Assembly (NCBI GenBank): GCA_963744145.1
Contig: CAVUSO010000001.1
Coordinates: 5,344,001 to 5,408,000, forward strand
Direction: 5' to 3'
DNA from: an uncultured cyanobacterium
Lineage (GTDB): Bacteria; Cyanobacteriota; Cyanobacteriia; Cyanobacteriales; CAWUOF01
DNA: 64,000 nucleotides
Part shown: positions 6,131 through 26,909 of the stretch, in pieces
Layout of the letters: every line of letters starts with the position of its first letter
Position numbering within the stretch: the stretch's first letter is position 1
The notes under the pieces: generated by a model
Databases searched by the model: none
Told to the model about the DNA's origin: nothing
The model's input: only the letters and a program-made list of their open reading frames with translations
Position numbers and translations under genes: made by a program

Positions 6131-6352
6131 GGTGGTATATAACCGGAGGCAATGCTAGACGGCTTACACTCTTCTAAATGGATTGCTCCATATCAAGGGT
6201 ATCTCGTAGCGAAGCGTTTGGCTAAGGTTGGCTAAATTAGATCCGCATACAATACTGTTATAACTTGGGGAATAGATAGTTGGATAATTAAAGGCAATAT
6301 AATTGGCTGTCAGTTGATCTTTGAGTAATTTAGTCTAAGTGGGATAAATTTT

Positions 6353-6380
6353 GTAGGGGCGTATGGCAATACGCCCCTAC
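6353..6380. repeat. GTAG-type REP-like palindrome GTAGGGGCGTAT-GGCA-ATACGCCCCTAC just downstream of sqdX
   Basis: 12-bp inverted repeat; same family as 33241-33336. Confidence 0.8.
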
Positions 6381-6395
6381 GACATATGGTCAAGA

Positions 6396-7529
6396 TTAGG
6401 CGGCTGATGGCATTTGTTTAGAGCAGAGGACAGCTTCATAGTAACGACGTAATTGGCGAGTCGCTGCGGGCCACCCCCATCGTTCGGCTTCTAGACGCGC
6501 ATGATCGCGCAGGTTTTCCCTTTCTTCTGGATGTGCTAAGAGTCTTTGGGTCGCGGCGATCGCTCCTTTGGGATCATTTGGGTCAAATAAATAGCCATTC
6601 ACCCCATCGGTGACGATATCTGGTATTCCTCCTGAGCGAGCGGCTACAACCGGACAACCAGCTGCCATAGCTTCGAGCAGAACTAATCCCAGGGTTTCAG
6701 TGCGAGAAGGAAAAATAAAAGCATCAGCTGAAGCATAAGCACTAGCTAATTCTCGACCACGGAGATAACCCACAAAATTAGTAGGTGTATCTGCAAAGTG
6801 TTCGATTAAAGCTTGACGATGGGGACCATCTCCGACGAGAGCTAATCTCGCGTTGGGAATAGCTGCTAAAACGGGTTTAATTTGATCAATTTCTTTTTCA
6901 GCGCCTAAACGTCCGACATAAAGTAATAGAGGACTGTCTGGGTGACCTTGACTTAGACGCGATCGCATTTCTAAACTAGCAAACTCTGGTTGAAAAAATT
7001 CTGTATCGACTCCACGTTGCCAGAGGTTAACCCTTTCGATCCCATGAGCTGTCAATTCCTCTACCATTGCGGTGGAGGTACAGAGGTTTAATTCAGCCTG
7101 ATTATGTCCTGCTCTGAGGAGACTCCATAGCACTTCCTCGAACATTCCCCACCCATAATGATGCAAATATTGTGGTAAGTGAGTGTGATATGATGCGACG
7201 ATGGGAATATTTAAGGTTTTGCCATAATACAAACCCCCGACCCCTAAAACTGCGGGATTAACGACATGAACAAGATCTGGATCAAATTCAGCTAAGATGT
7301 CACCAATCGAGGGACGGGGTAAGGCTAGTTTTAATTCAGGATACATAGGTAAGGGAAATCCAGGAATCCCGTGGATTTTTGCCCCCTCATATTCAGGTAT
7401 CCCTCCTTCCGGGGCAAAAATTATTACTTGATCGCCAAATCTTTGCAGATATTTAATGGTGTGACATAGACGGGTGACAATCCCATCTACTTTAGGTAAA
7501 AAAGTTTCTGTGAATAGAGCGATTCGCAT
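6396..7529 (-). CDS. sqdX: Sulfoquinovosyltransferase (GT4), sulfolipid synthesis
   Basis: MRIALFTETFLPKVDGIVTRL, ETLGLVLLEAMA; immediately downstream of sqdB. Confidence 0.93.
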   Translation of the reverse strand: MRIALFTETFLPKVDGIVTRLCHTIKYLQRFGDQVIIFAPEGGIPEYEGAKIHGIPGFPLPMYPELKLALPRPSIGDILAEFDPDLVHVVNPAVLGVGGLYYGKTLNIPIVASYHTHLPQYLHHYGWGMFEEVLWSLLRAGHNQAELNLCTSTAMVEELTAHGIERVNLWQRGVDTEFFQPEFASLEMRSRLSQGHPDSPLLLYVGRLGAEKEIDQIKPVLAAIPNARLALVGDGPHRQALIEHFADTPTNFVGYLRGRELASAYASADAFIFPSRTETLGLVLLEAMAAGCPVVAARSGGIPDIVTDGVNGYLFDPNDPKGAIAATQRLLAHPEERENLRDHARLEAERWGWPAATRQLRRYYEAVLCSKQMPSAA

Positions 7530-7604
7530 AGGAAAGTGGAAATTACAAAACTGATTAATCCTAATTTTTTTACAGATGGCAAATTGGAGAATGAAAAATA
7601 AATA

Positions 7605-7772
7605 GGTTCGTAGTAAGCGATTAGCGAGCTAAAGCGCTTATTAAAAGCTAGTTATTTAATTTCTATTCCTGAGACATTAGACCAGAAAGCAAAAGTCAAA
7701 AACTTCTGTTCGTGGTAAGATATCTGCTCCTTGATGATTGAGTATTGGGGGACTTTAGTCCCTACTACAAAC
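7605..7772. repeat. Degenerate inverted pair of cyanobacterial GTTxGTAGT-type short repeats between sqdB and sqdX
   Basis: gttcgtagtaagcg...cgcttatta near 7606 and the inverted gggactttagtccctactacaaac near 7749. Confidence 0.5.
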
Positions 7773-7913
7773 ATTTTTGCCAGAAGTCTAATTATCTGCA
7801 AAATTGCCACAAAACTCTGAAAAACCATCAGTTTTACTCCTGGGTTTTCCTTGTGGGTAAAATTAAAAGGCAATCAATAAAAATATTTTACCGATTGCCT
7901 TGGTTGCTTTTGC

Positions 7914-9167
<1,254 letters not shown>

Positions 9168-9345: not shown

Positions 9346-12264
9346 CTAACTTGATAAATGTGGTGAGAGTAAATTTAAAATTTCTTGATCATCAAAGGTT
9401 TCCGCTAAAGCTAAAATCCTCTGGGCAAAAGGAGTGTATTGAGGTTCCATCTGTTGTAACTGTTGAGTAACAGTTTCGATCGCGGTAATATCACCGATTT
9501 TGGCAGCAGCATAAATCGGAGCTAGTTTTTCGGCATGAGGGATGATTAAATCTTGATCTAATGTCGATTCTGTGGTTAATAGTTGTACATCGGATGATTC
9601 ATAGAGCCATTCTAATTTTAGGTAGGTTTGCAGATAGATAAATAGTTTTTCAATTTCAATTGGTTTGGGAAGAAAGTCATTACAACCAGCTCCGATACTA
9701 CTAATTTGGTATTCGGCTAACACACTAGCACTTGAAGCAATAATCACCACTTGCTTACCCTCCGGTAATTGACGAACCCGACGGGTAAATTCAAACCCAT
9801 CTAGAATGGGCATCACTAGATCTGTAATTACTAAATCTGGCTGAAATTGTGATACTAAAGCTAATGCTTCTTCTCCATTAGTAGCACAGATACATCGAAA
9901 ACCCAGCGGTTCCAGAATCTCGATCACAATGGAACGGTTAACTTCTTTATCATCCGCAATTAGAACGGTACGTTGTTTCCCTTGGTAACCAATAATTTTA
10001 CCTGGTTTTTCTGGGCTAACTACACTGGTCAATTGGGTGGCGATCGCTAAGTCTAAATCAAACCAAAAGTTACTTCCCTTACCAGGAATACTACGAACTT
10101 GGATAGTGCTACCCATTAAGTTAATGATTTTTTGACTAATCGCAAGTCCTAAACCTGTTCCTTCTGCACGATGGGATTTTGTTCCTACTTGTTCAAAAGG
10201 TAAGAAAATTTTTTCTAACTGTTCAGAAGTCATTCCTGCTCCTGTATCTTGAATAGAAAAGCGAATTTTTACATGGGAATCGAATGATTGATTGTCCGAT
10301 ATATTTAAATTTGACTCTAAACATAATACTTCTAGGGTTACACTCCCAACATCGGTAAATTTAATCGCATTTCCGAGGAGATTAATTAGCACTTGACGAA
10401 GGCGCTTATCGTCGCTATAAATAGTATTGGGGAGATTACCGCTAGGATGGTAAAATAATTCTATTCCTTTTTGTTGAGCCTTAATCCGTAATAGTTCGGT
10501 GATATTATTGAGAAAATAGGGGAGATGGAAATCTTGACAATCAAGCTCCATTTTTTGAGCCTCTATTTTGGAAAGATCAAGGATATCATTAATTAAATCT
10601 AACAGATGAGAAGCACATTGGTGAATGACATTAAGACTATTTTTATGTTTGTTTAAATCCTGGGAACGGTGCATGATTTGGGTATAACCAAGAATGCCAT
10701 TTAAAGGAGTTCTTAATTCGTGACTCATATTAGCTAAAAATTCACTTTTAGCTAAACTGGCGATTTCTGCTACTTCCTTAGCTTTATATAGCTCTTCCTC
10801 GGCTTTTTTACGTTTAGTAATATCCTCAATTGTCCCTTCATAGTATAGGACATTACCCCGATGGTCATAGATCGCTTGGACGGTTTCTGAAATCCAAATT
10901 ATCCTACCATCTTGACGGTAGACTTGGGCTTCAAATTCCAAGGCACTACTATGATAGTGAATTTGTTTTAGGAATTGTTTACGATTTTGCCGATCCACAT
11001 AAAGCTGTTCACTAATATTGGTAACTTTCTGGATCATCTCCACAGGTGATTCATACCCATAGATCCTTGCTAAGGCGGGGTTGACACTAATATAACGCTC
11101 GCTCTCATCAAATTGAAAAATCCCATTAATAGCATTTTCAAAAATACTACGATATTTTTTTTCTGCTTCATTTAAAGCTTGTTCAAATTGATGTCTTTTG
11201 CGGAGATTTTTTAGAAAAACTAGCAGCACATACACAACCGTCATGATCACAAATATAGTGAATATTTGTACAGTATAATTTTTATCTTTGAATTCATTAA
11301 TTCTTTTTTGTAGTAAAATATGTAATCTCGGTAAGATGGCGTCATAAAGATTTATTTGTGCCCGGAGGGATTGCTGTCCTACATTTATATATTCTGGCAA
11401 ATTGGTTTGATTATTGTTATTTTTGATAAAATAATCATAGATCAGATTAGCAAAGTTATTTGTAGCACGAATACTAACTTCCGTAGTGAATTTTAGTTGG
11501 GAATCATAGTTTTTTATATTACTAGAAATAGCTTCAATATTATGTTCAATTAATTCATTATTAGATTTGATCGAGCCATATAAAGCATTTAAGTCTTTTT
11601 CTTCTAGATTTAGATTATTGCTAAGATCATATTTTAAAATATTGTTTCCTAAATATAAAGAGCGACTAATACTTTCTATTATTACTGGTAAATAGCTAAT
11701 CGAGACATTGATCAAATGATAGCTCTCCAGGGTAGGATCAAGAATTAAATTAGTATCATCTCCCACTTGAGCAATTAACAGCAAAACTTCCATAATTATA
11801 TCTGTATATGCAGATAAATCGTGATTTTGAGAAAATTTTAAATTAAGGAAATTGCTTTTTAAAACCTGCCATTTTTGGTTTAATTCAATTTTAATCGATC
11901 GCCATTTATTACTAGTTAAATCAAAGGCTTTATTCAATTTTATTTCCGCAATGGTCAATTTTTGAAGATTTTGGTCTATTTTAGTTTGAAGTAAATTTAT
12001 ATCTCCAGATAAACTGTTATTATTAGGCTCGAATAAATATTGATTTACTTCACTACGATATTCAACCAGATTTTCTAAAACATCTTTCAGTAGATAATTA
12101 TATTCAATTCCTAATTTTTCTTTTTCAATAAAATCTTTTCCTAAATTAATTTCATAAGTTAGCTGATTAATAACTACTATAAAAGCAACTACAAAAATTA
12201 TTAAAATAATTATTAAATTAATTGATTCTGTTTTAATAAGTCGATTAAAAAAATTAATTTTCAT
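9346..12264 (-). CDS. Hybrid sensor histidine kinase: 2 TM, helical extracytoplasmic sensor, PAS, HisKA, HATPase, REC
   Basis: [43 protein letters not shown]; sensor motif [11 protein letters not shown]. Confidence 0.93.
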
Positions 12265-12486: not shown

Positions 12487-15400
12487 TTAGCTTGATAAAT
12501 GGGATGTGACTAAATTCAAAATTTCATGATCATCAAAAGCTTCAGCTAAAGCGAGAATTCTCTTCACAAATGGAGTATATTTAGGTTCCATCTGTTGTAA
12601 CTGTTTAGCAGCAATTTCGATCGCAGTAATATCACCAATTTTGGCAGCAGCATAAATAGGATCAAGTTCCTCAGCAGAGGGAATTATATAAGGTTGATCT
12701 GGGTCAGATTCAGTGAGAGATGCTTGTAAGTCTGACGATTCATAGAGCCATTCTATTTTTAGATATTTTTGCAGATACATAAATAGTTTTTCAATTTCAA
12801 TTGGTTTAGTTAGAAAGTCATTACAACCAGCTTCAATACTACTAAGTTGGTCTTCAGCTAAAACACTAGCACTTGACGCAATAATTATCACTTGGTTTCC
12901 CTCCGGTAATTGACGAACCCGACGGGTAAATTCAAACCCATCTAAAATGGGCATCACTAAATCTGTAATCACTAAATCTGGTTGAAATTGTGATACTAAA
13001 GCTAATGCTTCTTCTCCATTAGTCGCGGTAATACATGAAAAACCTAGCGGTGTCAGAATATCGATAATAATAGCACGGTTAACTTCTTTATCATCCGCAA
13101 TCAAGATAGTATGCTGTTTACCTTTATAACCAATAATTTGACCTTGTTTTTCTTGGGTAACGGAACTAGTCCATTGGGTGGCGATCGCTAATTCTAAATC
13201 AAACCAAAAGGTACTACCAGCACCAATCACACTATCGACTTGAATCTGGCTACCCATTATATTGATGATCTGTTGACTAATTGCTAGTCCCAGTCCTGTT
13301 CCTTCCGCACGACGGGCAGTATTTCCTACTTGTTCAAAGGGTTTAAATAGTTTATGAATTTGTTCTGGGCTAATCCCCACTCCTGTATCTTGGATGGCAA
13401 AACGTACTTTAACTGAAGTAGGTATTGATATATTTGGAGATGCTAAGTCTAAAACAATTACTTGAAAAGTAACCTGACCAACATCTGTAAACTTAATGGC
13501 ATTTCCTAATAGATTTAGCAGCACTTGACGTAACCGTTTATCATCGACCTGAACTGCTTGAGGAAGACTTGGATCAAATTGATAAATTAAATTAATTCCT
13601 TTTTGTTCTGCCCGAATTCGCGATAATTCTGTAATATTACTGAGAAAATAGAGAAAATGGATATCTTTCTGATATAGTTCCATTTTCCTGGCTTCAATTT
13701 TCGACAGGTCAAGAATATCATTAATTAAATCCAACAGATGACTACCGCATTGATAGACAATATTCACATTATGTTTATGGGAATTTAAGTCCACTGCCCG
13801 TTGCATAATTTGGGCATAACCGAGAATTCCATTCAGGGGAGTTCTTAATTCGTGACTCATCGCAGCAAGAAATTCACTTTTAGCTTGGTTCGCTACTTCA
13901 GCAGCAATTTTTGCCTGTTCTAGATGAGCTTCTAATTGTTTCCGTTCCGTAATATCCCGGAGAATCACAATATATTGCTGAAAATGCTCTCGTTTTCGTT
14001 GGGAAATGGTAGCTTCAATAATTGGTTGATGATCAAGCTGAGAGTGTCGGAGTTTTAAAATTTGTTCACTTCGTCCAGGAAATTCGGCTGGTTGAGCTGG
14101 TAAATTGGGGAAAAATTCATTGAGATGATAACCAATTAGTTGGGGTGATGGTCGTTTAAATAGATCAGTTGCTGCTAAATTGATTTGATTGATAATTCCT
14201 TCTTCATCTAGCACTAAAACTGTATCTAAAACTGTATCTAAAGCAGTAATAAAAAGATTTTCGGCTTGTTCTTTAGCTGCGGCGATCGCGGTCACTTGTG
14301 GTAAACTGGTCCAACAGGCGATCGCGACACTAATAAAGGCAATACTTAATAGTAACACGACCAAGATATTAGCATTAATCAGATTAGAAACTTGATCAAC
14401 ATTAGCTCTAATAAACCACCCAATGGTAGTTGCTCCACATACTAACAGCAGCAAAATAATAATTTGATATTCGACAAAATAGTCAGGCTGATCTGATGTC
14501 TGATTTTTCTTGAATTTTAACCACCAACGGGGCTGACAAACAGCAAAAGGTAATCTTCTGATAATTTGATCGGCAGTAAGAATAAAAATAGGACATAAAA
14601 TTCCCAAAACAAAATTTTGTTTATTCCATGCTGATGCGGTGATTAATAGAACAAAAATTTCCCCAATAAAAATACCGCCAGAAATCCAGGGCCAACGCAC
14701 TTCTTCTCGATTTCTATTGAGCCAAAGTCCGAGACGAAAGATCATAATAGTTACTAAATAGCTCGTCCCAGTGACAATAACTATTTGATCGACATTTCCC
14801 CAAATTAAACAAATAATACTTAAAGTAAAACTCAAAATAATGGCAGGTTGCAAAACTCCTTGATTAGAAACTACCCTAAACACGGTCGATAGATTTCCAT
14901 CTAAAGCCATCTGATAAAATACCCGGGGGGTATTAGAAACTGCGGTGGCAGAAATTAATAAACATCCAGAGGCAATCAAAAAAGTTATTAAAATGGCAGC
15001 ATAAGGTCCCCAGAAATGATTAGCACTTGCTAGTAATTGGGCAAAACTACCATCTGAGGTTTGAATGCTTAAACGACTAATCACCCAAGAACCACCAACA
15101 AATATGGGGATAATAAACCAGGTTACAAATTTTAAACAGCGTAAAGTAAAATCAGGGTAACGGCTATCTGCGACAAAGGAAGAAGCAGTATCAAACGCAT
15201 ACATGGCATAAGAAGCAAAAAAATACCATTTAGCCCAAATTGGCAAACTGATCCCAGAGAAGTTGGTCGGGAAAAATCCAGGACTATCATGAGCAAAAGC
15301 TAACCAACCTAATCCTTGGAGACAAAAGGTCAATAGAAAACCTAAAGCTGGTAGAATAAAACATAAATGCAAAATCGCTAAAGATCTCGTACCGCTAAAA

Positions 15401-15834
15401 GCAACTATATAGGGTAATACAGTAAATAAGACTTTTAGTGGTAGTTCTGGAGGATGTATTCCTAAAGGAGATAAATTAGCAGTAATTAGATCCGTGAGAA
15501 CGATCGCATTTAAAGTTGGTACTGCTGACCAACTAAAAGCATAGCCGATCGCTGCATAACGAGCTAACCAGGGATATTTACTTAATAAACGAGTGAGATA
15601 AATTGGTGTTCCACCGGATAAATCAGGCCATTTTTCTCCTAAACGTTTGACCTGGAGGTTAAACATAATGGCTATAATAGTTCCAGGTAGCAGCACTAAA
15701 ATAGCACTTTCTTTTAGGGCTGTATTCAAGTCTGGTGCAATATATAACCAGCCAATGAAATTGCTTAAACTAAAACCTAATGCTTCTATCGGACTCAGGA
15801 CTCGGGGCAGTCGTCTTTGTAGTTGATCAAGCAT
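12487..15834 (-). CDS. APC-family (amino-acid permease-like) domain fused to PAS-HisKA-HATPase-REC hybrid kinase, copy A
   Basis: About 14 hydrophobic segments with APC hallmarks (LPRVL..., WPDLSGGTPIY, SNTPRVFYQMALDG), followed by [10 protein letters not shown] and a receiver domain. Confidence 0.9.
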   Translation of the reverse strand: MLDQLQRRLPRVLSPIEALGFSLSNFIGWLYIAPDLNTALKESAILVLLPGTIIAIMFNLQVKRLGEKWPDLSGGTPIYLTRLLSKYPWLARYAAIGYAFSWSAVPTLNAIVLTDLITANLSPLGIHPPELPLKVLFTVLPYIVAFSGTRSLAILHLCFILPALGFLLTFCLQGLGWLAFAHDSPGFFPTNFSGISLPIWAKWYFFASYAMYAFDTASSFVADSRYPDFTLRCLKFVTWFIIPIFVGGSWVISRLSIQTSDGSFAQLLASANHFWGPYAAILITFLIASGCLLISATAVSNTPRVFYQMALDGNLSTVFRVVSNQGVLQPAIILSFTLSIICLIWGNVDQIVIVTGTSYLVTIMIFRLGLWLNRNREEVRWPWISGGIFIGEIFVLLITASAWNKQNFVLGILCPIFILTADQIIRRLPFAVCQPRWWLKFKKNQTSDQPDYFVEYQIIILLLLVCGATTIGWFIRANVDQVSNLINANILVVLLLSIAFISVAIACWTSLPQVTAIAAAKEQAENLFITALDTVLDTVLVLDEEGIINQINLAATDLFKRPSPQLIGYHLNEFFPNLPAQPAEFPGRSEQILKLRHSQLDHQPIIEATISQRKREHFQQYIVILRDITERKQLEAHLEQAKIAAEVANQAKSEFLAAMSHELRTPLNGILGYAQIMQRAVDLNSHKHNVNIVYQCGSHLLDLINDILDLSKIEARKMELYQKDIHFLYFLSNITELSRIRAEQKGINLIYQFDPSLPQAVQVDDKRLRQVLLNLLGNAIKFTDVGQVTFQVIVLDLASPNISIPTSVKVRFAIQDTGVGISPEQIHKLFKPFEQVGNTARRAEGTGLGLAISQQIINIMGSQIQVDSVIGAGSTFWFDLELAIATQWTSSVTQEKQGQIIGYKGKQHTILIADDKEVNRAIIIDILTPLGFSCITATNGEEALALVSQFQPDLVITDLVMPILDGFEFTRRVRQLPEGNQVIIIASSASVLAEDQLSSIEAGCNDFLTKPIEIEKLFMYLQKYLKIEWLYESSDLQASLTESDPDQPYIIPSAEELDPIYAAAKIGDITAIEIAAKQLQQMEPKYTPFVKRILALAEAFDDHEILNLVTSHLSS

Positions 15835-15850
15835 ATAATTATTAATTGTT

Positions 15851-18800
15851 CTAAATTGATAGATGGGAGGTAACTAAATTCAAAATTTCCCTGTCTTCAA
15901 AAGCTTCAGCTAAAGCCAGAATTTTTTTGACAAAGGGAGTATATTTAGGTTCCATCTGTTGTAATTGTTTAGCGGCAATTTCGATCGCGCTAATATCACC
16001 GATTTTCGCTGCATCATAAATGGCAGTGAGTTCCTCTGCACTAGGTATTATATCAGGTTGATCTTGAGGAAATTCTGTGGTTAATAATTGCACATTAGAT
16101 GATTCATATAACCATTCTAGTTTTAGATATTTTTGCAGATACATAAATAGTTTTTCGATTTCAATTGGTTTAGTTAGAAAGTCATTACAACCAGCTTCGA
16201 TACTACTAATTTGGTCTTCAGCTAAAACACTAGCACTTGACGCAATAATTATCACTTGGTTTCCCTCCGGTAATTGACGAACCCGACGAGTAAATTCAAA
16301 CCCATCCAGAATGGGCATCACTAAATCAGTAATCACTAAATCAGGCTGAATTTGTGATACTAAAGCTAATGCTTCTTCTCCATTAGTCGCAGTAATACAT
16401 GAAAAACCTAGCGGTGTCAGAATATCGATCACAATGGAACGGTTAACTTCTTTATCATCCGCAATCAAGATAGTACGCTGTTTACCTTTATAACCAATAA
16501 TTTGACCTTGTTTTTCTTGGGTAACGGAACTGGTCCATTGGGTGGCGATCGCTAGTTCTAAATCAAACCAAAAGGTACTACCAACACCGATCACACTATC
16601 TATTTGAATCTGACTACCCATCATATTGATGATCTGTTGACTAATTGCTAGTCCCAGTCCTGTTCCTTCCGCACGACGGGCTGCATTTCCTACTTGTTCA
16701 AAGGGTTTAAATAGTTTATGAATTTGTTCTGGACTAATTCCCACTCCTGTATCTTGGATGGCAAAACGGATTTTTGTAGTGGTTGCAGTTACTGGACTTA
16801 TCAACTCTGAATCTAGCACTATTACTCGAAAAGTAACACTACCAACATCAGTAAACTTAATCGCATTTCCTAATAGATTCAGTAGCACTTGACGTAACCT
16901 TTTGTCATCTACTTTAACCGCTTGAGGAAGACGCGGATCAAATTGATAAACTAAATTAATTCCTTTTTGTTCTGCCCGAATTCGCGATAATTCGGTAATA
17001 TTACTGAGAAAATAGAGCAAATGGATATCCTTCCGATACAGTTCCATTTTCCTAGCTTCAATTTTCGACAGGTCAAGAATATCATTAATTAAATCTAGCA
17101 AATGACTACCACATTGATAAATAACATTCACATTCTGCTTATGGGAATTTAAGTCCACTGCTCGTTGCATAATTTGGGCATAACCGAGAATTCCATTCAG
17201 GGGAGTTCTTAATTCATGACTCATGGAAGCGAGAAATTCACTTTTAGCTTGGTTCGCTACTTCAGCAGCAATTTTTGCTTGTTCTAGATGAGCTTCTAAT
17301 TGTTTCCGTTCCGTAATATCCCGGAGAATCACAATATATTGCTGAAAATGATCTCTTTTGCGTTCGGAAATTGTTGCTTCAATAATTGGTTGCTGATAAA
17401 TCTGGGAGTGTCGGAGTTTTAAGATTTGTTCACTCCGAGTCGGAAATTCGGCTGGTTGGGCTGGTAAATTGGGGAAAAATTCGTTGAGATGATAGCCAAT
17501 CAGTTGGAGCGATGGTAGTTTAAATAGGTCGGTTGCGGCTAAATTGATTTGACTGATAATTCCTTCTTCATCTAGCACTAAAACTGTATCTAAAACTGTA
17601 TCTAAAGCAGTAATAAAAAGATTTTCGGCTTGTTCTTTAGCTTCAGCGATCGCTGTTACTTGTGGTAAACTTGTCCAACAGGCGATCGCGACACTAATAA
17701 AAGCAATACTTAAAACTAATACCACCAAAATATTAGCATTAACTATCCCAGAAGCATGATCTATTTTGGCCCGGAGAACCCAACCAATTGTAGTGGCACT
17801 AACTACTAAAAAGAGGAGAATGATAATTTGATATTCAACAAAATGTTTAGGCTGGTTAACAGTCTGACTTTTCCGATGCTTCAACCACCAACTGGGATGA
17901 CAAATCGCTAAAGGCAAATTACGGATCATTAAATCTGCGATTAAAATAAAAATTGGCAAAAGGAGTCCGATCGCAAAATTATATCGATCCCAAGCTGTTC
18001 CTCCAACGATCAGAATCATAAATTCAACTATACCAACCACCCCAGAAATCCAGGGCCAACGCACCTCCGGTCTATTTCTACTCAGCCATAATCCGATATG
18101 GAATACTATAATTGTGACGACATAGCTAGTTCCAGTTACCATCACAATTTGAGTAGTATCTCCCCAAATTAAGCAAATAATACTCAGTAAAAAACTCAAC
18201 AAAATAGCTGGTTGTAAAACACCTTGCCGAGAAACTACTCCAAATACGGGAGATATATGTCCATCTAGAGCCATTTGATAAAATATCCGAGGACAGTTAC
18301 AAACAGCAGTTGCTGCAATTAGTAAACATCCAGATGCCATCAGAAAGGTAACTAAAATTGCCGCAGGCGGTCCCCAAAAATGATTAGCAGTTGCAACTAA
18401 CTGTAAAAAATCATTATCTGATCGATCCAGCGATAAACGACCAATTAGCCAAGAACCACCCACGAATATGGGGATAATGAACCAAGCTGTGAATTTTAAA
18501 CAACGTAAAGTAAAATCAGGATTACGACTATCTGCGACAAAGGAAGAAGCTGTGTCGAAACTATAAATAGCATAGACTGCAAAAAAATACCATTTTGCCC
18601 ACAGTGGTAAATCGATCGCGGGCACACTGGTAGGTAAAAATCCCGGACTATCACTAGCCAAAGTTAACCATCCTAAACCTTGCACACAAAATGTTAATAA
18701 AAACCCTAATGCAGGTAAGACAAAACATAAGTGTAAGATGGCTAAAGTTCTGGTGCCACTAAAGGCAACTATATAAGGTAATGCTGTAAATAAGATTTTT

Positions 18801-19201
18801 AGGAATGTGGCTGGAGTATGTATTCCTAAAGGCTCAAGATTGGCAGTAATTAAATCAGTGAGAATAATGGCATTTAGAGGTGGTACTGATACCCAGTCTA
18901 AGATATAGCCGATCGCTGCATAGCGTGCTAACCAAGGATATTGACTCAATAAACGAGTGATATAAATTGGTGTACCACCAGCTAAATCGGGCCAATGTTC
19001 TCCTAAGCGTTTAATCTGGAGGTTAAACATGATACCCATGATTGCTCCAGGTAACATGACGAAAATGGCATTTTCTTGGAGTGCCGTATTCAAATCTGGT
19101 GCAATATATAGCCATCCAATTAAACCACTGAGACTAAAACCTAATGCTTCTAAAGGACCAAGAATGCGGGGCAGACTTCTGGAAAATTGTTGATTTATCA
19201 T
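15851..19201 (-). CDS. APC permease-hybrid histidine kinase fusion, copy B
   Basis: Full-length paralogue of copy A with intact H-box, G-boxes and receiver Asp/Lys. Confidence 0.9.
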   Translation of the reverse strand: MINQQFSRSLPRILGPLEALGFSLSGLIGWLYIAPDLNTALQENAIFVMLPGAIMGIMFNLQIKRLGEHWPDLAGGTPIYITRLLSQYPWLARYAAIGYILDWVSVPPLNAIILTDLITANLEPLGIHTPATFLKILFTALPYIVAFSGTRTLAILHLCFVLPALGFLLTFCVQGLGWLTLASDSPGFLPTSVPAIDLPLWAKWYFFAVYAIYSFDTASSFVADSRNPDFTLRCLKFTAWFIIPIFVGGSWLIGRLSLDRSDNDFLQLVATANHFWGPPAAILVTFLMASGCLLIAATAVCNCPRIFYQMALDGHISPVFGVVSRQGVLQPAILLSFLLSIICLIWGDTTQIVMVTGTSYVVTIIVFHIGLWLSRNRPEVRWPWISGVVGIVEFMILIVGGTAWDRYNFAIGLLLPIFILIADLMIRNLPLAICHPSWWLKHRKSQTVNQPKHFVEYQIIILLFLVVSATTIGWVLRAKIDHASGIVNANILVVLVLSIAFISVAIACWTSLPQVTAIAEAKEQAENLFITALDTVLDTVLVLDEEGIISQINLAATDLFKLPSLQLIGYHLNEFFPNLPAQPAEFPTRSEQILKLRHSQIYQQPIIEATISERKRDHFQQYIVILRDITERKQLEAHLEQAKIAAEVANQAKSEFLASMSHELRTPLNGILGYAQIMQRAVDLNSHKQNVNVIYQCGSHLLDLINDILDLSKIEARKMELYRKDIHLLYFLSNITELSRIRAEQKGINLVYQFDPRLPQAVKVDDKRLRQVLLNLLGNAIKFTDVGSVTFRVIVLDSELISPVTATTTKIRFAIQDTGVGISPEQIHKLFKPFEQVGNAARRAEGTGLGLAISQQIINMMGSQIQIDSVIGVGSTFWFDLELAIATQWTSSVTQEKQGQIIGYKGKQRTILIADDKEVNRSIVIDILTPLGFSCITATNGEEALALVSQIQPDLVITDLVMPILDGFEFTRRVRQLPEGNQVIIIASSASVLAEDQISSIEAGCNDFLTKPIEIEKLFMYLQKYLKLEWLYESSNVQLLTTEFPQDQPDIIPSAEELTAIYDAAKIGDISAIEIAAKQLQQMEPKYTPFVKKILALAEAFEDREILNLVTSHLSI

Positions 19202-19219
19202 ATAATCATGAGTGCTTTA

Positions 19220-22200
19220 CTAAGTTGATAAATGAGCGGATACTAAATTCAAAATTTCCTTATCTTCAAAAGCTTCAGCTAGAGCGAGAATGCGATGCAC
19301 AAAGGGAGTATATTGAGGCTCAATCTGTTGTAAATGTTTAGCCGTACTTTCAATGGCTGCAATATCACCAATTTTAGCTGCTTCATAAATAGGGGCTAGT
19401 TCCTCCGCACTAGGAATGATATAAGGTTGATCTGGTTGGGATTCTGTCGTCAATAGTTGCACCGTTGCTGATTCATACAGCCATTCGATTTGGAGATATT
19501 TTTGCAGACTGAAAAATAGTTTTTCAATTTCCATCGGTTTGGGGAGAAAATCATTACAACCTGCTTCAATACTGCTAACTTGATCCTCGGCTAAGACACT
19601 GGCACTCGAAGCAATTATTACCACTTGATTCCCCTTCGGTAATTGACGGACTCGACGGGTAAACTCAAACCCATCCAGAATGGGCATCACTAAATCTGTA
19701 ATCACTAAATCAGGCTGAATTTGTGATACTAATGTTAATGCTTCTTCCCCATTAGTAGCTGGGATACACTTAAAACCCAGAGGTGCAAGAATATCGATCA
19801 CAATCGCGCGGTTGATTTCTTTATCATCAGCAATCAGAATGGTACGTTGTTTACCTTTGTAACCGATAATTTGTCCTTGCTTTTCCTGGGTAATTTGATT
19901 TGTCCATTGGGTGGCGATCGCTAGTTCTAAATCAAACCAAAAGGTACTACCAACACCAAGAATACTATCTACTTGAATTTGACTACCCATGAGATTAATC
20001 ATTCGTTGACTAATCGCAAGTCCCAGTCCTGTTCCTTCCCCACGACGGGATTTATTTCCTACTTGTTCAAAAGGTTGAAATAGTTTGTAAATTTGCTTAG
20101 AGCTAATCCCCACTCCTGTATCTTGAATAGAAAAGCGAATTTTAACTAGATGACTTTCTGATTCGGCGGTCGGTATTTTCAGTTCTGAGTCTAACATGAT
20201 CACCTGAAAAGTAACACTACCTTGATCAGTAAATTTAATTGCATTGCCCAGTAAATTAATTAGCACTTGACGCAGACGTTTTTCATCGGCTTTGATCACC
20301 TTGGGAAGGTTTGGACTTACTTGGTAATAAAAATTAATTCCCTTTTGTTCAGACCGAATCCGGAATATTTCGGTAATATTAGTCAGAAAATAAATTAAAT
20401 GAACATCTTTAAAATAAAGCTCCATTTTCCGGGCTTCTATTTTAGAAAGGTCAAGAATATCATTAATTAAATCTAGAAGATGGGTCCCACACTGATGAAT
20501 AATATTCACATTGTTTTTATGAGAATTTAAGTCCTTAGTACGTTGCATGATTTGGGTATAACCCAGAATTCCATTCAAGGGAGTTCTTAACTCATGACTC
20601 ATGGAAGCTAGAAATTCACTTTTAGCTTGATTTGCTGTTTCCGCTGTAACTTTTGCTTCTTGGAGACGTAATTCTAGTCTTTTGCGTTCTGTAATATCCC
20701 GCAGAATCACTATATATTGTTGAAGCTGAGTTTTTTTTCGTTGCGAAATTGTTGCTTCAATAATTTGTTGAGATGGGTTTCGCTTCAAACTACAATATAA
20801 CTGTGGATTTAAGGTTTGTTCACTCCGAGCCGGAAATGCTTCTGGTTGATTTGGTAAATCTGGAAAAAACCGATTGAGATGATAACCAATTAAATGTTCA
20901 GCATTGACTCCAAAAAGTTCAGTAGCTGCGAGATTAGTTTGTTCAATAATTCCATCAGTATCTAAAACTAAAACAGTATCTAAAACTGTATCGAGAGCAG
21001 TAACAAATAAATTTTCTGCTTGCTCTCTAGCTTCGGCGATCGCGGTCACTTGTGGTAAACTAGTCCAACAGGCGATCGCGACGCTAATAAAAGCTATACT
21101 CAGTAGCAAAACTACAAAAATATTGGCATTAACACTACTCGAAATTTTATCGATTGTAGCCCGCAGAAACCAGCCAATTGTGGTGGCGCTACAAACTAAT
21201 AACAGCAGAACAATGACCTGATACTCGACAAAACTGTTGAAACTACTAATTGCTCGATTTTTCTGAATTGTTAGCCACCAAGTCGGATGGCAGATGGCGA
21301 AAGGAAGATGTCGGATCACTGAATCTGCCATTAAAATAATCATGGGCAGGAAGAGTCCAATTATAAAATCTTGCCGATTCCATGCTAATCCACCTACTAC
21401 TAAAATTGCCAATTCAACTACACAAATTAATCCGGTAATTTGAGGCCAAAGAACTTCTGATCGATGTTTACCTAGCCATAGCCCTAGATGTAAGATCATG
21501 ATCGTTAATAGGTAGCTAGTACCTGTGATCATCACAATCTGAGTAACATTTCCCCAAATTAAACAGATTATACTTAAAGTAAAACTGGCCAGAATTGCCG
21601 GTTGCAGGACACCTTGACGAGAAACTACTGTTAATACGGGAGATAGGTGTTGATCGAGAGCTAGTTGATAAAAGATCCTGGGACAGTTAGACACCGCAGT
21701 TGCCGAAATTAGCAAGCATCCAGACGCCATCAGAAAAGTGACCAGAATTGGAGCTGAAGGTCCCCAAAAATATTGAGCTGTTGCTAAGAGATGGGCAAAA
21801 TCATTGTTTTCTAGGTTAGGGTTAGTAGCTAAACGACTCATTAACCAAGAACCGCCCACAAATATTGGTATAATTAACCAAGCCGTAAATTTTAAACAGC
21901 GTAAAGTAAAATCAGGACGACGACTATCTGCCACAAAAGATGAGGCTGTATCACAGGAATAAACGGAGTAGCTAGCAAAAAAATACCACTTTGCCCATTG
22001 TTCAAAAGTTAACTGTGGTAAATGAGTCGGAAAAAAATTCGGGCTATCAGTGGCAAAAGTTAACCATCCCAATCCTTGCACGCAAAATGTGAGTAAAAAG
22101 CCAATTGCAGGTAGGATAAAACATAAGTGTAAAATTGCTAAAGCGCGGGTGCCGCTAAAAGCAACAATATAAGGTATTACTGTAAAGATAATTTCTAGGA

Positions 22201-22597
22201 AAGTTTGTGGGCTAGATATTTCTAAAGAGCCAAGATTTGCTTGGATCAGATCAGTGAGGATAATAGCATTTATTGGTGGTATTGAGACCCAGGCTAAGAT
22301 ATAGCCGATCGCTGCATAACGCACTAACCAAGGATATTGACTTAATAATCGAGTAATATAAATTGGTGTACCACCAGCTAAATCAGGCCATCTTTCTCCT
22401 AAACGTTTCACTTGGAGGTTGAGCATAATACTAACTATGCTGGCAGGTAACATGATGAAAATTACGTTTTCTTGCAGGGCTGCATTCAAGTCTGGTGCAA
22501 TATAAAGCCACCCAATTAACCCACTTAAACTAAAACCTAATGCTTCTAATGGACTGAGAATTCGCGGTAGATGTCTTGGCAATTGTTGATCAAGCAT
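19220..22597 (-). CDS. APC permease-hybrid histidine kinase fusion, copy C
   Basis: Start moved to MLDQQLPRHLPR (22597) by alignment with copies A and B; intact kinase and receiver motifs. Confidence 0.9.
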   Translation of the reverse strand: MLDQQLPRHLPRILSPLEALGFSLSGLIGWLYIAPDLNAALQENVIFIMLPASIVSIMLNLQVKRLGERWPDLAGGTPIYITRLLSQYPWLVRYAAIGYILAWVSIPPINAIILTDLIQANLGSLEISSPQTFLEIIFTVIPYIVAFSGTRALAILHLCFILPAIGFLLTFCVQGLGWLTFATDSPNFFPTHLPQLTFEQWAKWYFFASYSVYSCDTASSFVADSRRPDFTLRCLKFTAWLIIPIFVGGSWLMSRLATNPNLENNDFAHLLATAQYFWGPSAPILVTFLMASGCLLISATAVSNCPRIFYQLALDQHLSPVLTVVSRQGVLQPAILASFTLSIICLIWGNVTQIVMITGTSYLLTIMILHLGLWLGKHRSEVLWPQITGLICVVELAILVVGGLAWNRQDFIIGLFLPMIILMADSVIRHLPFAICHPTWWLTIQKNRAISSFNSFVEYQVIVLLLLVCSATTIGWFLRATIDKISSSVNANIFVVLLLSIAFISVAIACWTSLPQVTAIAEAREQAENLFVTALDTVLDTVLVLDTDGIIEQTNLAATELFGVNAEHLIGYHLNRFFPDLPNQPEAFPARSEQTLNPQLYCSLKRNPSQQIIEATISQRKKTQLQQYIVILRDITERKRLELRLQEAKVTAETANQAKSEFLASMSHELRTPLNGILGYTQIMQRTKDLNSHKNNVNIIHQCGTHLLDLINDILDLSKIEARKMELYFKDVHLIYFLTNITEIFRIRSEQKGINFYYQVSPNLPKVIKADEKRLRQVLINLLGNAIKFTDQGSVTFQVIMLDSELKIPTAESESHLVKIRFSIQDTGVGISSKQIYKLFQPFEQVGNKSRRGEGTGLGLAISQRMINLMGSQIQVDSILGVGSTFWFDLELAIATQWTNQITQEKQGQIIGYKGKQRTILIADDKEINRAIVIDILAPLGFKCIPATNGEEALTLVSQIQPDLVITDLVMPILDGFEFTRRVRQLPKGNQVVIIASSASVLAEDQVSSIEAGCNDFLPKPMEIEKLFFSLQKYLQIEWLYESATVQLLTTESQPDQPYIIPSAEELAPIYEAAKIGDIAAIESTAKHLQQIEPQYTPFVHRILALAEAFEDKEILNLVSAHLST

Positions 22598-23008
22598 ATA
22601 TTTTTTCCCTGGTAAAAGTGTAGGTGAAAATACTCTGAAAATATTGGCAAGTAGATTGACTAAAAATGCCAGTTTTTTGATCAAATATGATCCTAATTTT
22701 TTCCCAAAATAATTGAGATTATTTGTCGTTACATGAATCTTATCATAGTAATTAGAACGGGTAAATTTGCCGATGGTTCCAGCCAATAGAATTAGATTAC
22801 CCTAGGGCGATCGGAAAATAACTATTTTCTGACTGGTACAATCAAGCTACTAGAACCTTGACCTAGCAAGGATATTAAAAATATTTCAGAATTTGTAATC
22901 TAGGAAACATCTTTTTTTTTAAAAGTATAGTATTAGGTAAGAAATGAAAGGAAAACAGCTAAGATCAGGCGTAAAGATAGTTTTCTTTTTTAATAGCACC
23001 TGCTCCCT

Positions 23009-25532
23009 TTAGATTGATACATAGGATTCTACTAAATTTAGAATTTCTTTATCTTCAAAAGAATCAGCTAACGCTAGAATGCGATTGACAAAAGGAATAT
23101 ATTTAGTATCAATCTCTTGTAAGCGTTTAGCTTCTTCTTCGATCGCTGTAATATCACCGATTTTTGCCGCGGCATAGATTTGAGCTAATTCTAGAGCAGG
23201 TGGTACAATTAGGGTGGTGTTTTCCAGGACTGATGCTAAACTGGTTGATTGATGATCTAGGGGCAATGTTGATTCATAAACCCATTCAATTTTGAGATAT
23301 TTCTGAAAATAAAAGAATAATTTTTTGATATCAATCGGTTGGAAAATAAAATCATTAAAATTAGCTTTGATCCGATTAACTTGCTCAGGGGATAAACCCT
23401 GATTAGTAGCAGCAATAATCACGATATGATTAAATTTCGATAATTTCCGTAAACTCTGGGCAAATTGAAAACCATCAAGAATTGGTATTTCTAAATCTGT
23501 GATAATTAAATCGGGACTAAAGTATTTTACTTGAGTTAATGCTTCTTCCCCATTAGTTGCTTCCATGCACTCAAACCCAATGGGTTTAAGAATATCGAGG
23601 AGAATTAAACGATTTTCTGGGTTGGGATCAACAATTAATATTTTGCGTCGTTGACCTTGATAACCAACAATTTTTCCTTGATCCGCAATAGGGGCAGTAT
23701 TTTTCCATTCAGTTGCGATCGGAAATTCCAGTTCAAACCAGAAGGTACTTCCAAATCCAGGAGTGCTACTAACTTCAATCTTACTCCCCAGGATATTCAC
23801 AATTTTTTGGCTGAGTGCCAGTCCTAATCCCGTACCTTTTTGTCGTCGATAAACACTACTAACTTGTTCAAAGGGTAAAAAGATTGTTTCAATTTTTTCC
23901 GGAACAATACCTAACCCTGTATCTTGAATAGAAAAGCGAATCTTAACGTGAGAATCTCTTAATTCTAAAATAGTTACGTCGAAGGTAATACTACCTATCT
24001 CTGTAAACTTTACCGCATTATCCAGGAGATTCATTAACACTTGTCGCAGATGTTTATCATCAACTTGGATCGCAGTAGGTAGATTTGAGCTTACTTGATA
24101 ATGAAAATTAATCCCTTTTTTCTGGGCATGAGTGCGGGACAGTTCAATAATATTACTGAGAAAATAGGGTAAATGAACATCTTTGGGTTCTAGCTCCATT
24201 TTTTGAGTTTCGATTTTAGAAAGATCGAGAATATCATTAATTAAACCCAGCAGATAGGTGCCACATTGATAAATAATATTCACATTATTCTTATGCAGAT
24301 TTAGGTCATTAGCGTGTTGCATCAGTTGTGCTGCACCCAAAATTCCATTCAAAGGAGTTCTTAATCCATCACTGATCGATGCAATAAAATCGCTTTTAGC
24401 TTGATTAGCGACTTCTACTGCTACTCTTGCTTCATCCAGATGTACTTCTAATTTTTTCCGATCGCTCAGATCGCGCAAAATCACGATATATTGGGGAAGC
24501 GCATCTTTTTTTACTTCCGCAATTGTTACTTCAATAATTCTTGAGGGCTGAGGTAGAGATAGATTGCTAAAAACCCCTAAGTGTAGAGTTTGCTCACTCC
24601 GAGTCGAGAAAAATTCTGGTTGATTTGGTAAATCGGGAAAAAACTGATTGAGATGATAACCAATTAACTGCTCCGCATTGAGTCCAACCATTTCAGTAGT
24701 GGCTGGATTAATTCGACAAATAATTCCAGTTTCATCTAACAATAAAATTGGCTCGTTCACTAGATTTAAAGTTTTGATCAACAGAGTTTCAGCTTGGTCT
24801 TTAGCCGCAGCGATCGCCGTAATTTGGGGTAAAATAGTCCCGCAGGCGATCGCCACACTAATCAAAGCAATACTTAGCAATAAAATTACAAAAATATTGG
24901 TGTTTATACTACTATAAAAATGATCTAGTCGGCCTCTGAGCAACCAACTGATTGTAGTTGCACCACCAACTAATAACAGCAGCATGATGACTTGATACTG
25001 GATCAAATGAGAAAAATGGCTCATTGTTTGATTTTTCTGAGGACGGAACCACCAATCAGCAAGAAAGATTGCCAAGGGGAGACGACGAATAAATAGATCG
25101 ATCATTAAAATTACCATCGGCAAGAGAAGTCCAATCACAAAATTTTGCCGATTCCAAGCTAACCCACATACTACTAAAATGACACATTCAGCGACAAAAA
25201 TGCCACCAGAAAGCCAAGGCCAACGCACTTCGGTGCGATCTTTACCTAACCATAGTCCCATGTGTAAGATCATCATGGTTAACAGGTAGCCCGGACCTGT
25301 AATCATCACAATCTTAACCAGAATTGATGCAGACGGCGGGATAATGCCCTAACCAAGGATCGGGGCTGAACAGTCGAGTGATATAAATTGGCGTTCCACC
25401 AGCTAAATCCGGCCATTTTTCGCCCAAGCGTTTCACTTGTAAGTTGAGCAGAATGCCGACGATGGTAGCAGGTAAGATGACTAAGGGACTAAGAATGCGG
25501 GGCAGACGCCTGGGTAATGGTTGATTGAGCAT
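23009..25532 (-). pseudogene. Internally deleted fourth APC-kinase paralogue: 5' fragment 25314-25532 plus 766-aa ORF 23009-25309 with a His-less H-box
   Basis: The fragment matches paralogue N-termini with gaps; frameshift near 25340. H-box reads SDGLRTPL instead of SHELRTPL; receiver has IVDP (not ADD) and QP (not KP). Confidence 0.75.
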
Positions 25533-25664: not shown

Positions 25665-26684
25665 TTAAGGGCGATCGCTTGCTGGCCAAGGAATACTGAC
25701 AGCGCGTAAAAATGCAGCGCTTTCTTCAGGTAAAGTAGTATTAATAAACATTCCCGTTCCTAATTCAAATCCAGCCGCCACAGAAGTTCTGGGTATCAGT
25801 GCTAAATACCAATGAAAATATGAAGCACTTTCATCTGCTGTCGGGATCGAGCGAATGGTATAGTTATAATCGGGATTATTTAAGCCATAGAAAAGTTTTC
25901 CTAGTAAAATTTTCAACATTTTTGCTAAGTCAGTAATTTCCACATCAGTAATTTCATCAAAAGAAGATGTATGGCGGCGCGGAAAAATCCAGAGATGAAA
26001 GGGAGAAAGGGCAGCGTAAGGGATAAAAGCAACAAAATGTTCTCCTGCAACCACAATTCTTTCACCAATGGCGATTTCCTCTTGTAAGGTCTGGCAAAAA
26101 ATACATTCACCTGTATCATCAAAATAGCGAATCGCTTCTTGAGCCCGAATTCGCAATTGATAGGGTACGATTGGTGTTCCCGCTAGTTGGGAATGTGGAT
26201 GTTCCAAAGAAGTTCCAGCCGCTTTCCCATGATTTTTAAAAATAATGATGGTCTCTACCCTTGGATCTAGTTTGAGGGTGCTGTATCTTTGACGATAAAC
26301 TTGCAAAATATTAGCGATATCCTCTAGATCCATCAATGCGATCGTCAAATCATGTCGGGGATGTTCGATAATAACTTCGTGAACCCCAACTCCTGATAAG
26401 CACCGATTCATCCCTTTTACTTGTCTGACTCGTTCTCCCACATTAGAGAGTGCTGGAAATTTATTAGCTACAGCACGCACCCTCCAGCTATTTCCATCGC
26501 TGATCCGCAATGATTCTGGTCCTGTAATTAGTTCGTTTCCCAAACAAAACGGACAATCTGACCGATACTGGGGCATTTCAATCGCTTTGGTAAAAGCTGA
26601 GGCAAATTCGTCGGGTCTTTTCGACCTTTCTGTCGCGATGATTACCCAGTCTCTGGTAATGGCATTTAACCTAATTTCTGACAT
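25665..26684 (-). CDS. galT: Galactose-1-phosphate uridylyltransferase family protein
   Basis: WVIIATERSKRP, CPFC, NKFPAL, HEVIIE, SLEHPHSQ active site, AGFELG. Confidence 0.92.
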   Translation of the reverse strand: MSEIRLNAITRDWVIIATERSKRPDEFASAFTKAIEMPQYRSDCPFCLGNELITGPESLRISDGNSWRVRAVANKFPALSNVGERVRQVKGMNRCLSGVGVHEVIIEHPRHDLTIALMDLEDIANILQVYRQRYSTLKLDPRVETIIIFKNHGKAAGTSLEHPHSQLAGTPIVPYQLRIRAQEAIRYFDDTGECIFCQTLQEEIAIGERIVVAGEHFVAFIPYAALSPFHLWIFPRRHTSSFDEITDVEITDLAKMLKILLGKLFYGLNNPDYNYTIRSIPTADESASYFHWYLALIPRTSVAAGFELGTGMFINTTLPEESAAFLRAVSIPWPASDRP

Positions 26685-26909
26685 TACTATCCTCTCTGTA
26701 AATATATATGTACGGTTTGGCAATCAATTTTCTAAAATTTCTTGCCTTTGCTGGAATTTAGTGCTAGGATATACTTACTTAGTACGCTTAAGATAATGAT
26801 ATTTTAGATATATTAATAAAAAGCGATCGCGATCAGTAATGTGATCGCGATCAGTAGACCAGAAAGCCAAAATAACTAGGACGGATATCTTACCGATCCA
26901 ATAACTTGT

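Follow-up and report, generated by a model that had tools for sequence, protein, structure and literature searches.

The DNA analysed here, a 64,000-nucleotide stretch referred to as the window, lies within a 7.6-Mb contig of a soil cyanobacterium whose genome is 96% complete. It carries a tandem array of three hybrid histidine kinases, each with an N-terminal membrane domain that is predicted to adopt the fold of the APC transporters. The evidence stands about evenly for and against the reading that these kinases use an amine-permease-derived receptor for a small amine and feed one phosphorelay. The membrane domain itself defines a family of transporter-derived sensors that is real and apparently unstudied.

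A sequence-only reading of the window had described three adjacent genes of about 1115 amino acids, each joining a membrane domain to PAS, HisKA, HATPase and receiver (REC) domains with intact catalytic motifs. The genes were found to encode 1115, 1116 and 1125 amino acids on the minus strand, with 16 and 18 bp between neighbours. The PAS, HisKA, HATPase_c and REC domains of copies 1 to 3 scored above the Pfam cut-offs, and the H box (H661 in copy 1), the N, G1 and G2 boxes and the REC residues DD, D958 and K are intact in all three. The segments quoted for transmembrane helices (TM) 1 and 6 were present in the translations. The complete set of hybrid kinase residues (phospho-His, N/G1/G2 and REC DD-D-K) was also identified in a fifth kinase of the locus; a decayed fourth copy does not carry it. 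The C-terminal tail of the array kinases had no match in Pfam.

The Pfam APC match of the membrane domain was weak (E-values of 3e-3 and 4e-5, below the cut-off, and none for copy 3), whereas the predicted structure was firm. The AlphaFold2 model of residues 1–540, built from an 86-row alignment, reached a predicted local distance difference test score (pLDDT) of 94.1 and a predicted template modelling score (pTM) of 0.92. Residues 7–443 of the model align to APC carriers with Z-scores of up to 36.6 and a root-mean-square deviation of 3.2–3.5 Å, the matches including y+LAT1 (Z 36.6 over 432 residues) and AdiC (Z 35.6 over 393). The 5+5 inverted-repeat core and TM11–12 of the APC superfamily are both present in the model. 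The family profile matches LysP (E 9e-8), the Pfam and NCBIfam matches were to APC families only, and the top structural matches belong to SLC7/APC/CCC. The ESM Atlas gave no more than leads (0.89) to APC clusters. A single-sequence search of the PDB with the membrane part gave no match, and a PDB search with the full-length alignment returned only kinase domains among the 60 matches listed. A homodimer prediction for residues 41–540 scored 0.07. The predicted APC fold and the kinase domains in one open reading frame support the fusion of transporter and kinase that had been proposed. Two further helices, which had been missed, follow the fold (451–480 and 485–539). The last runs unbroken into the PAS domain and, on the model, would be a signalling helix.

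In amino-acid-carrying APC/SLC7 permeases, TM1 carries a G-S/T-G motif that binds the carboxylate, and TM6 is unwound. The array lacks this motif. W29-L30-Y31 occupies the place of G-T-G in GkApcT, and the W is found at 99% across the family. TM6 was assigned by DSSP on the model as a continuous helix (197–220). A modelled stand-alone permease of the TmoP-like clade has the same TM1 break and a continuous TM6; taken alone, neither trait is evidence that transport was lost.

The nearest characterised transporter family is that of TmoP, the trimethylamine N-oxide (TMAO) permease of Methylocella silvestris (NF053774; Zhu et al. 2014, as cited in PMC4543880 and PMC5520151). TM3 YxxxW, TM6 Y-[AG]-x-E-T-A and TM10 GY are common to TmoP and the sensor domain, and GSG is absent from both; the two differ in that identity is about 20% and TmoP stands alone in methylamine clusters. 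When 31 members were aligned to NCBIfam models, the TMAO permease was the most frequent match, with 25 members; every score stayed far under the 690-bit cut-off (23 bits for copy 1; E 1e-15 for the best member). Of the 150 matches listed, just one was clearly a stand-alone permease, and this protein, P0264, also has TmoP as its best family. The profile-profile comparison between the sensor family and the TmoP-like clade gave an E-value of 4.7e-31 and was gap-free through TM1. In the single-sequence comparison, P0264 reached 1.2e-25, and a canonical APC from the same genome 4.7e-4. The family hidden Markov model scored six clade members at 41–173 bits and four APCs of the array's own genome at 4–40 bits.

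For the substrate pocket, 26 positions were mapped through alignments with GkApcT and LysP and through AdiC residues, anchored on conserved motifs rather than taken from coordinates. In each of the seven clade rows listed, agreement with the family consensus was higher at the pocket than at the remaining TM positions (for example 15/26 versus 42/220, p=6e-5); none of the four canonical APCs showed this. No structure of the TmoP-like clade was among the PDB matches. We count the kinship with TMAO/methylamine-type permeases as shown, and from these comparisons the membrane domain appears to have descended from the amine-permease clade. Amino acids or amines had been named as the ligands. The array has W-L-Y instead of GSG, and its closest transporter relatives are amine permeases, which makes amino acids the less probable class and favours amines; the family domain likely detects small amines rather than amino acids.

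The model also resembles the cation transporters KimA and NKCC1 (Z 30–34), and the bulky W29 and Y31 could fill the pocket. Both would suit a domain that senses an ion or proton gradient, the membrane state or a partner protein instead of a small organic ligand, as would the reported response of some SLC5 kinases to ionic strength. The pocket is shared selectively with amine permeases, however, and 8 of 83 rows, drawn from several families, keep one and the same pocket type unchanged, which makes such a sensor quite improbable.

Of 401 cyanobacterial genomes, 51 contain the sensor domain, and at genus level it is present in 29 of the phylum's 156, with at most three candidates scored per genome. 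A search with the region recovered 684 proteins among 7,993 scored candidates, and a full HMMER scan gave 176 clusters at 50% identity. The named homologues are cyanobacterial, and no plasmid match was found for the sensor domain. Among 47 representatives, 37 carry a kinase, 7 a GGDEF domain, 1 a PP2C domain and 2 PAS only; GGDEF-EAL is among the outputs of the family. In 14 of the 47, no PAS or GAF lies between sensor and output and the sensor is the sole input domain. HAMP was absent from the domain families listed for these representatives. Of 271 full-domain proteins, 264 extend at least 100 amino acids past the sensor and the other 7 look truncated. No domain-only protein was among the best 120 matches of a search over 277–968 amino acids, no search having been restricted to shorter proteins. 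Some sources annotate members as "amino acid permease", so the architecture has been annotated though not studied. No published study of the family was found in the literature searched, which lies mostly outside subscription journals, and older cyanobacterial two-component surveys may list it. The statement that no APC-permease hybrid kinase had been characterised agrees with this apparent absence.

The closest described architecture is that of CbrA and CrbS (MxtR), sensor kinases with an SLC5 domain and STAC (PMC13022988, PMC7918813). They likewise fuse a LeuT-fold membrane domain to PAS-DHp-CA, with REC in CrbS/MxtR. The array differs from them in its APC-family rather than SLC5/SSS domain, in two hydrophobic helices that lead straight to PAS in place of the four-helix STAC, and in being tandem, cyanobacterial and without a cognate regulator in the locus. 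The best functional analogy is provided by the Amt-derived ammonium receptors Ks-Amt5 and Sd-Amt1 (PMC5764959, PMC11152129), in which a nitrogen-solute transporter has taken on the role of a receptor coupled to a kinase or diguanylate cyclase. These have the Amt fold and a measured ligand, and Ks-Amt5 shows no transport, whereas the array has an APC fold and is known from sequence and model. The 5TMR and S-component receptors also place a transporter-derived fold at the input of kinases and other outputs, the fold being unrelated (PMC11109136).

CbrA also sets the precedent for a bifunctional protein whose membrane domain still imports its solute while control of the kinase lies with a cytoplasmic PAS or a partner. 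The full set of 12 APC helices is kept here with high model confidence, and the missing GSG and continuous TM6 occur in a stand-alone permease as well. Moreover, no stand-alone TmoP-like permease was matched at E 1e-25 in the 401 genomes, for each of which up to 3 candidates were scored, so the fusion could supply uptake. Against these points, the 14 representatives without PAS or GAF, the shuffling of the domain among three output types and the failure to find an amine-catabolism pathway in the source genome render continued import unlikely.

The relatives of the sensor were examined for their genomic context. Of 119 TmoP-like plasmid matches, five loci were examined; four are methylamine clusters, with either TMAO demethylase or genes of the dimethylamine monooxygenase type, and the fifth has a Rieske oxygenase alongside. 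At the metagenome loci of the clade, gmaS/mgs-like genes were found in 28 of 80 overall and in 26 of the 41 loci of at least 6 kb. These soil metagenomes (L126–L205) hold a large unnamed TmoP-like permease clade beside gmaS/mgs genes, and a protein of about 600 amino acids without an NCBIfam match, which we take to be cNMP-CBS-like, occurs in 38 of the 80 loci. Among the sensors themselves, 34 of 80 loci show the Nostoc type and a histidine decarboxylase gene arranged tail-to-tail. In L078 (8415–14559) and 33 other Nostoc-type loci, the arrangement is a ParA-like gene, the sensor (about 1127 amino acids) and the convergent decarboxylase; 14 of them also have a homospermidine-biosynthesis gene upstream. 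Histidine decarboxylase is rare in cyanobacteria, being identified in 10 of the 401 genomes, 8 of one genus, where it always stands beside the sensor, and 2 without a sensor match.

Divergence among the copies is uneven along the genes. The kinase and receiver halves had been called nearly identical, which holds for copies 1 and 2 (92% identity), whereas copy 3 shares 79–81% with either, compared to 72–78% over TM1–10 among the three copies. The most variable membrane parts were TM11–12 (47–57% identity) and the loops. Between copies 1 and 2, synonymous divergence (dS) was 0.87 in the APC domain and 0.14–0.34 from PAS to REC. This low value in the outputs indicates gene conversion, apparently over a tract of about codons 481–1020. 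For pairs with copy 3, nonsynonymous divergence (dN) in the APC domain was 0.18–0.23, similar to the 0.16–0.24 of PAS and HATPase. The sensor halves show a dS of 0.9–1.1 with an APC dN/dS of about 0.2 throughout (purifying selection), so all three copies have long been retained. This retention, and the independent origin of tandem arrays in other lineages, make it very unlikely that the copies are functionally equal, recent duplicates of a birth-and-death array, even though they form a lineage-specific clade, copy 4 is decaying and the outputs are gene-converted.

The membrane variation had been thought to concentrate at the TM1/TM6 pocket, which was not the case. Invariant among the three copies were 20 of 26 pocket positions versus 154 of 220 other TM positions (p=0.65). 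Six pocket positions differ (25, 26, 101, 105, 210 and 213), with Ser, Asp and Ala at 101. The family-consensus pocket residues are retained at 15–17 of 26 positions in the array, and at 24 of 26 in a dispersed copy of the same genome. The single-copy sister P0008 has the common family pocket, and the larger pocket change lies on the stem of the array rather than between its copies. This stem change, together with pocket variation among the copies that does not exceed background, suggests that the array probably shifted its ligand once and was then tuned.

The original proposal, which named amino acids or amines, can be read as a set of amino-acid sensors in which every copy recognises a different amino acid. 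The best structural matches are indeed amino-acid carriers, the six differing positions would allow for distinct ligands, and Microcoleus tandem pairs differ at 10–15 of 26 positions. With GSG replaced, amine permeases as the nearest transporters and pocket variation in the array no higher than background, we regard it as rather improbable; different ligands within the array are weakly suggested at best. Tandem copies were found at 4 of 80 loci and also in G156, G396, G020 and G410 (G396 probably being the same contig as L044); the survey of copy number across cyanobacteria extended such arrays to other lineages, where they arose separately. The array copies are products of local duplication. 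They form a clade of their own with P0007, the nearest outside relative, apart from the Microcoleus arrays in a quick tree. Tandem pairs in other lineages are identical at 11, 16 and 11 of 26 pocket positions, and a bank of distinct ligands fits the Microcoleus arrays better than the present one. In Microcoleus sp. N3A4 (L038:9902–21547), four or more sensor kinases stand in tandem, and their pockets diverge strongly, with 6 of 26 positions invariant; arrays related to it lie upstream of a single REC and two further kinases.

The proposal that the copies feed one shared output is better founded than when it was made. It is supported by the homogenised outputs, as seen at synonymous sites, and by a receiver shared with the neighbouring fifth kinase, which has a different sensor. 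This kinase is the closest kinase/REC paralogue of the array (73% identity versus 54% for P0007), with a REC dS of 0.35 between them. Its receiver is homogenised with those of copies 1 and 2.

In the favoured reading, an amine would bind in the predicted TM1/3/6/8/10 pocket (W29, Y98, W102, N109, Y209, Y212, D215 and Y359), where aromatic side chains and the acidic residue of TM6 would hold it. The movement caused by binding would travel along the two added helices to PAS and the kinase and alter autophosphorylation of His661, from which phosphate would move to Asp958 of REC and then to a regulator or phosphotransfer protein whose gene lies outside the locus. The copies would probably cover related amines or different affinities and, together with the fifth kinase, report into one pathway. 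Transport by the membrane domain is probably reduced or lost, by analogy with Ks-Amt5.

Several observations weigh against this reading. The identity to the amine permeases is low, as given above, the tree joins them by a long branch and holds no canonical APC outgroups, and the last clade row is level with the best canonical APC (40.8 versus 40.0 bits). The array pocket has moved off the common family pocket, so its ligand may differ. The Nostoc decarboxylase linkage represents one lineage and was noticed post hoc, and no amine theme was found among 93 other sensor neighbours. The source genome has neither the gmaS/mgs pathway nor a stand-alone TmoP-like permease, and no histidine decarboxylase above the cut-off. 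Finally, the transporter domain of CbrA is dispensable for kinase function (PMC7918813).

Table 1. Features of the sensor kinase locus (positions in the window).
Feature	Position	Strand
Copy 1, hybrid kinase of 1115 aa: APC-fold sensor, TM13–14, PAS, HisKA, HATPase, REC	12487..15834	-
Copy 1, predicted 12-helix APC/LeuT-fold domain, aa 7–443; TM1 break at G28, W29-L30-Y31 instead of GSG	14506..15816	-
Copy 1, extra helices, aa 451–480 and 485–539; second modelled as one helix into the PAS start	14218..14484	-
Copy 1, cytoplasmic PAS-HisKA(H661)-HATPase-REC(D958)	12778..14241	-
Copy 2, 1116 aa, intact; Asp at TM3 pocket position 101	15851..19201	-
Copy 3, 1125 aa from ATG, intact; frame open to TTG at 22786	19220..22597	-
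Copy 4, 3' part, open reading frame of 766 aa, TM10 to end	23009..25309	-
Copy 4, 5' remnant, 72 codons	25314..25532	-
Fifth hybrid kinase, 972 aa: two TM helices flanking a helical periplasmic domain, PAS, kinase, REC	9346..12264	-

The coordinates are listed in Table 1. Copy 4 (23009–25532) and the fifth kinase had not been mentioned before. Copy 4 lies upstream of the intact copies. Its 5′ remnant has lost TM1 and ends in a stop after 72 codons, followed by a deletion of about TM3–TM9 and a frame change; in the 766-amino-acid frame the phospho-His is replaced by Asp and the REC DD and Lys are lost. Its dN/dS is below 1 despite the lost phospho-His. Copy 4 could be a recent pseudogene or a pseudokinase that modulates the other copies. 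An assembly artefact was not supported, since short-read contigs run across both junctions and show no difference there, the overlap on one side of the second being a borderline 30 bases. These contigs come from a public soil-metagenome run, possibly the source sample, and reach every one of the region's 30 bins, in most cases with identity of 99% or more. No RNA data set was listed as containing the region.

The fifth kinase lies downstream of the array. Its periplasmic domain gave a NIT-like lead in the ESM Atlas (score 0.94) and no Pfam or PDB match, and is kept as a lead only. If it is truly NIT-like, the locus would pool nitrogen-compound signals. The dispersed family member (positions 5632082–5634934 of the contig) lies about 270 kb from the array and has a non-hybrid kinase.

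No regulator gene was found adjoining the array, and a promoter and terminator scan of the region gave matches at chance level. Control by NtcA was discarded: GTA-N8-TAC, which we take to be the NtcA-type motif, matched 3 times in 18 kb, fewer than the approximately 6 expected by chance (hand estimate). The flanks (3530–9071 and 25665–26723, minus strand) encode a GAF-GAF-PAS adenylate cyclase, sulfolipid genes (presumably sqdX/sqdB) and a GalT-like gene, with no evident link to the array.

More broadly, and only tentatively, filamentous cyanobacteria may possess an undescribed amine-receptor family that derives from a methylamine/TMAO-type permease, was shuffled onto kinases, diguanylate cyclases and phosphatases, and forms tandem arrays with diversifying pockets and homogenised outputs. 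To our knowledge, most cyanobacterial sensor kinases have no known signal. The amine-permease ancestry leads to a short list of candidate ligands, namely methylamines, TMAO, ethanolamine, histamine and choline-type amines. If the reading is true, the family, which is common in Nostoc, Microcoleus and relatives, would sense biogenic amines from neighbours, hosts or the cell itself, in Nostoc the product of the adjacent decarboxylase. It would also show that transporters of the APC family have become receptors by a path distinct from those of SLC5-STAC and Amt, and would suggest that amine signalling takes place in cyanobacteria of soil crusts and symbioses.

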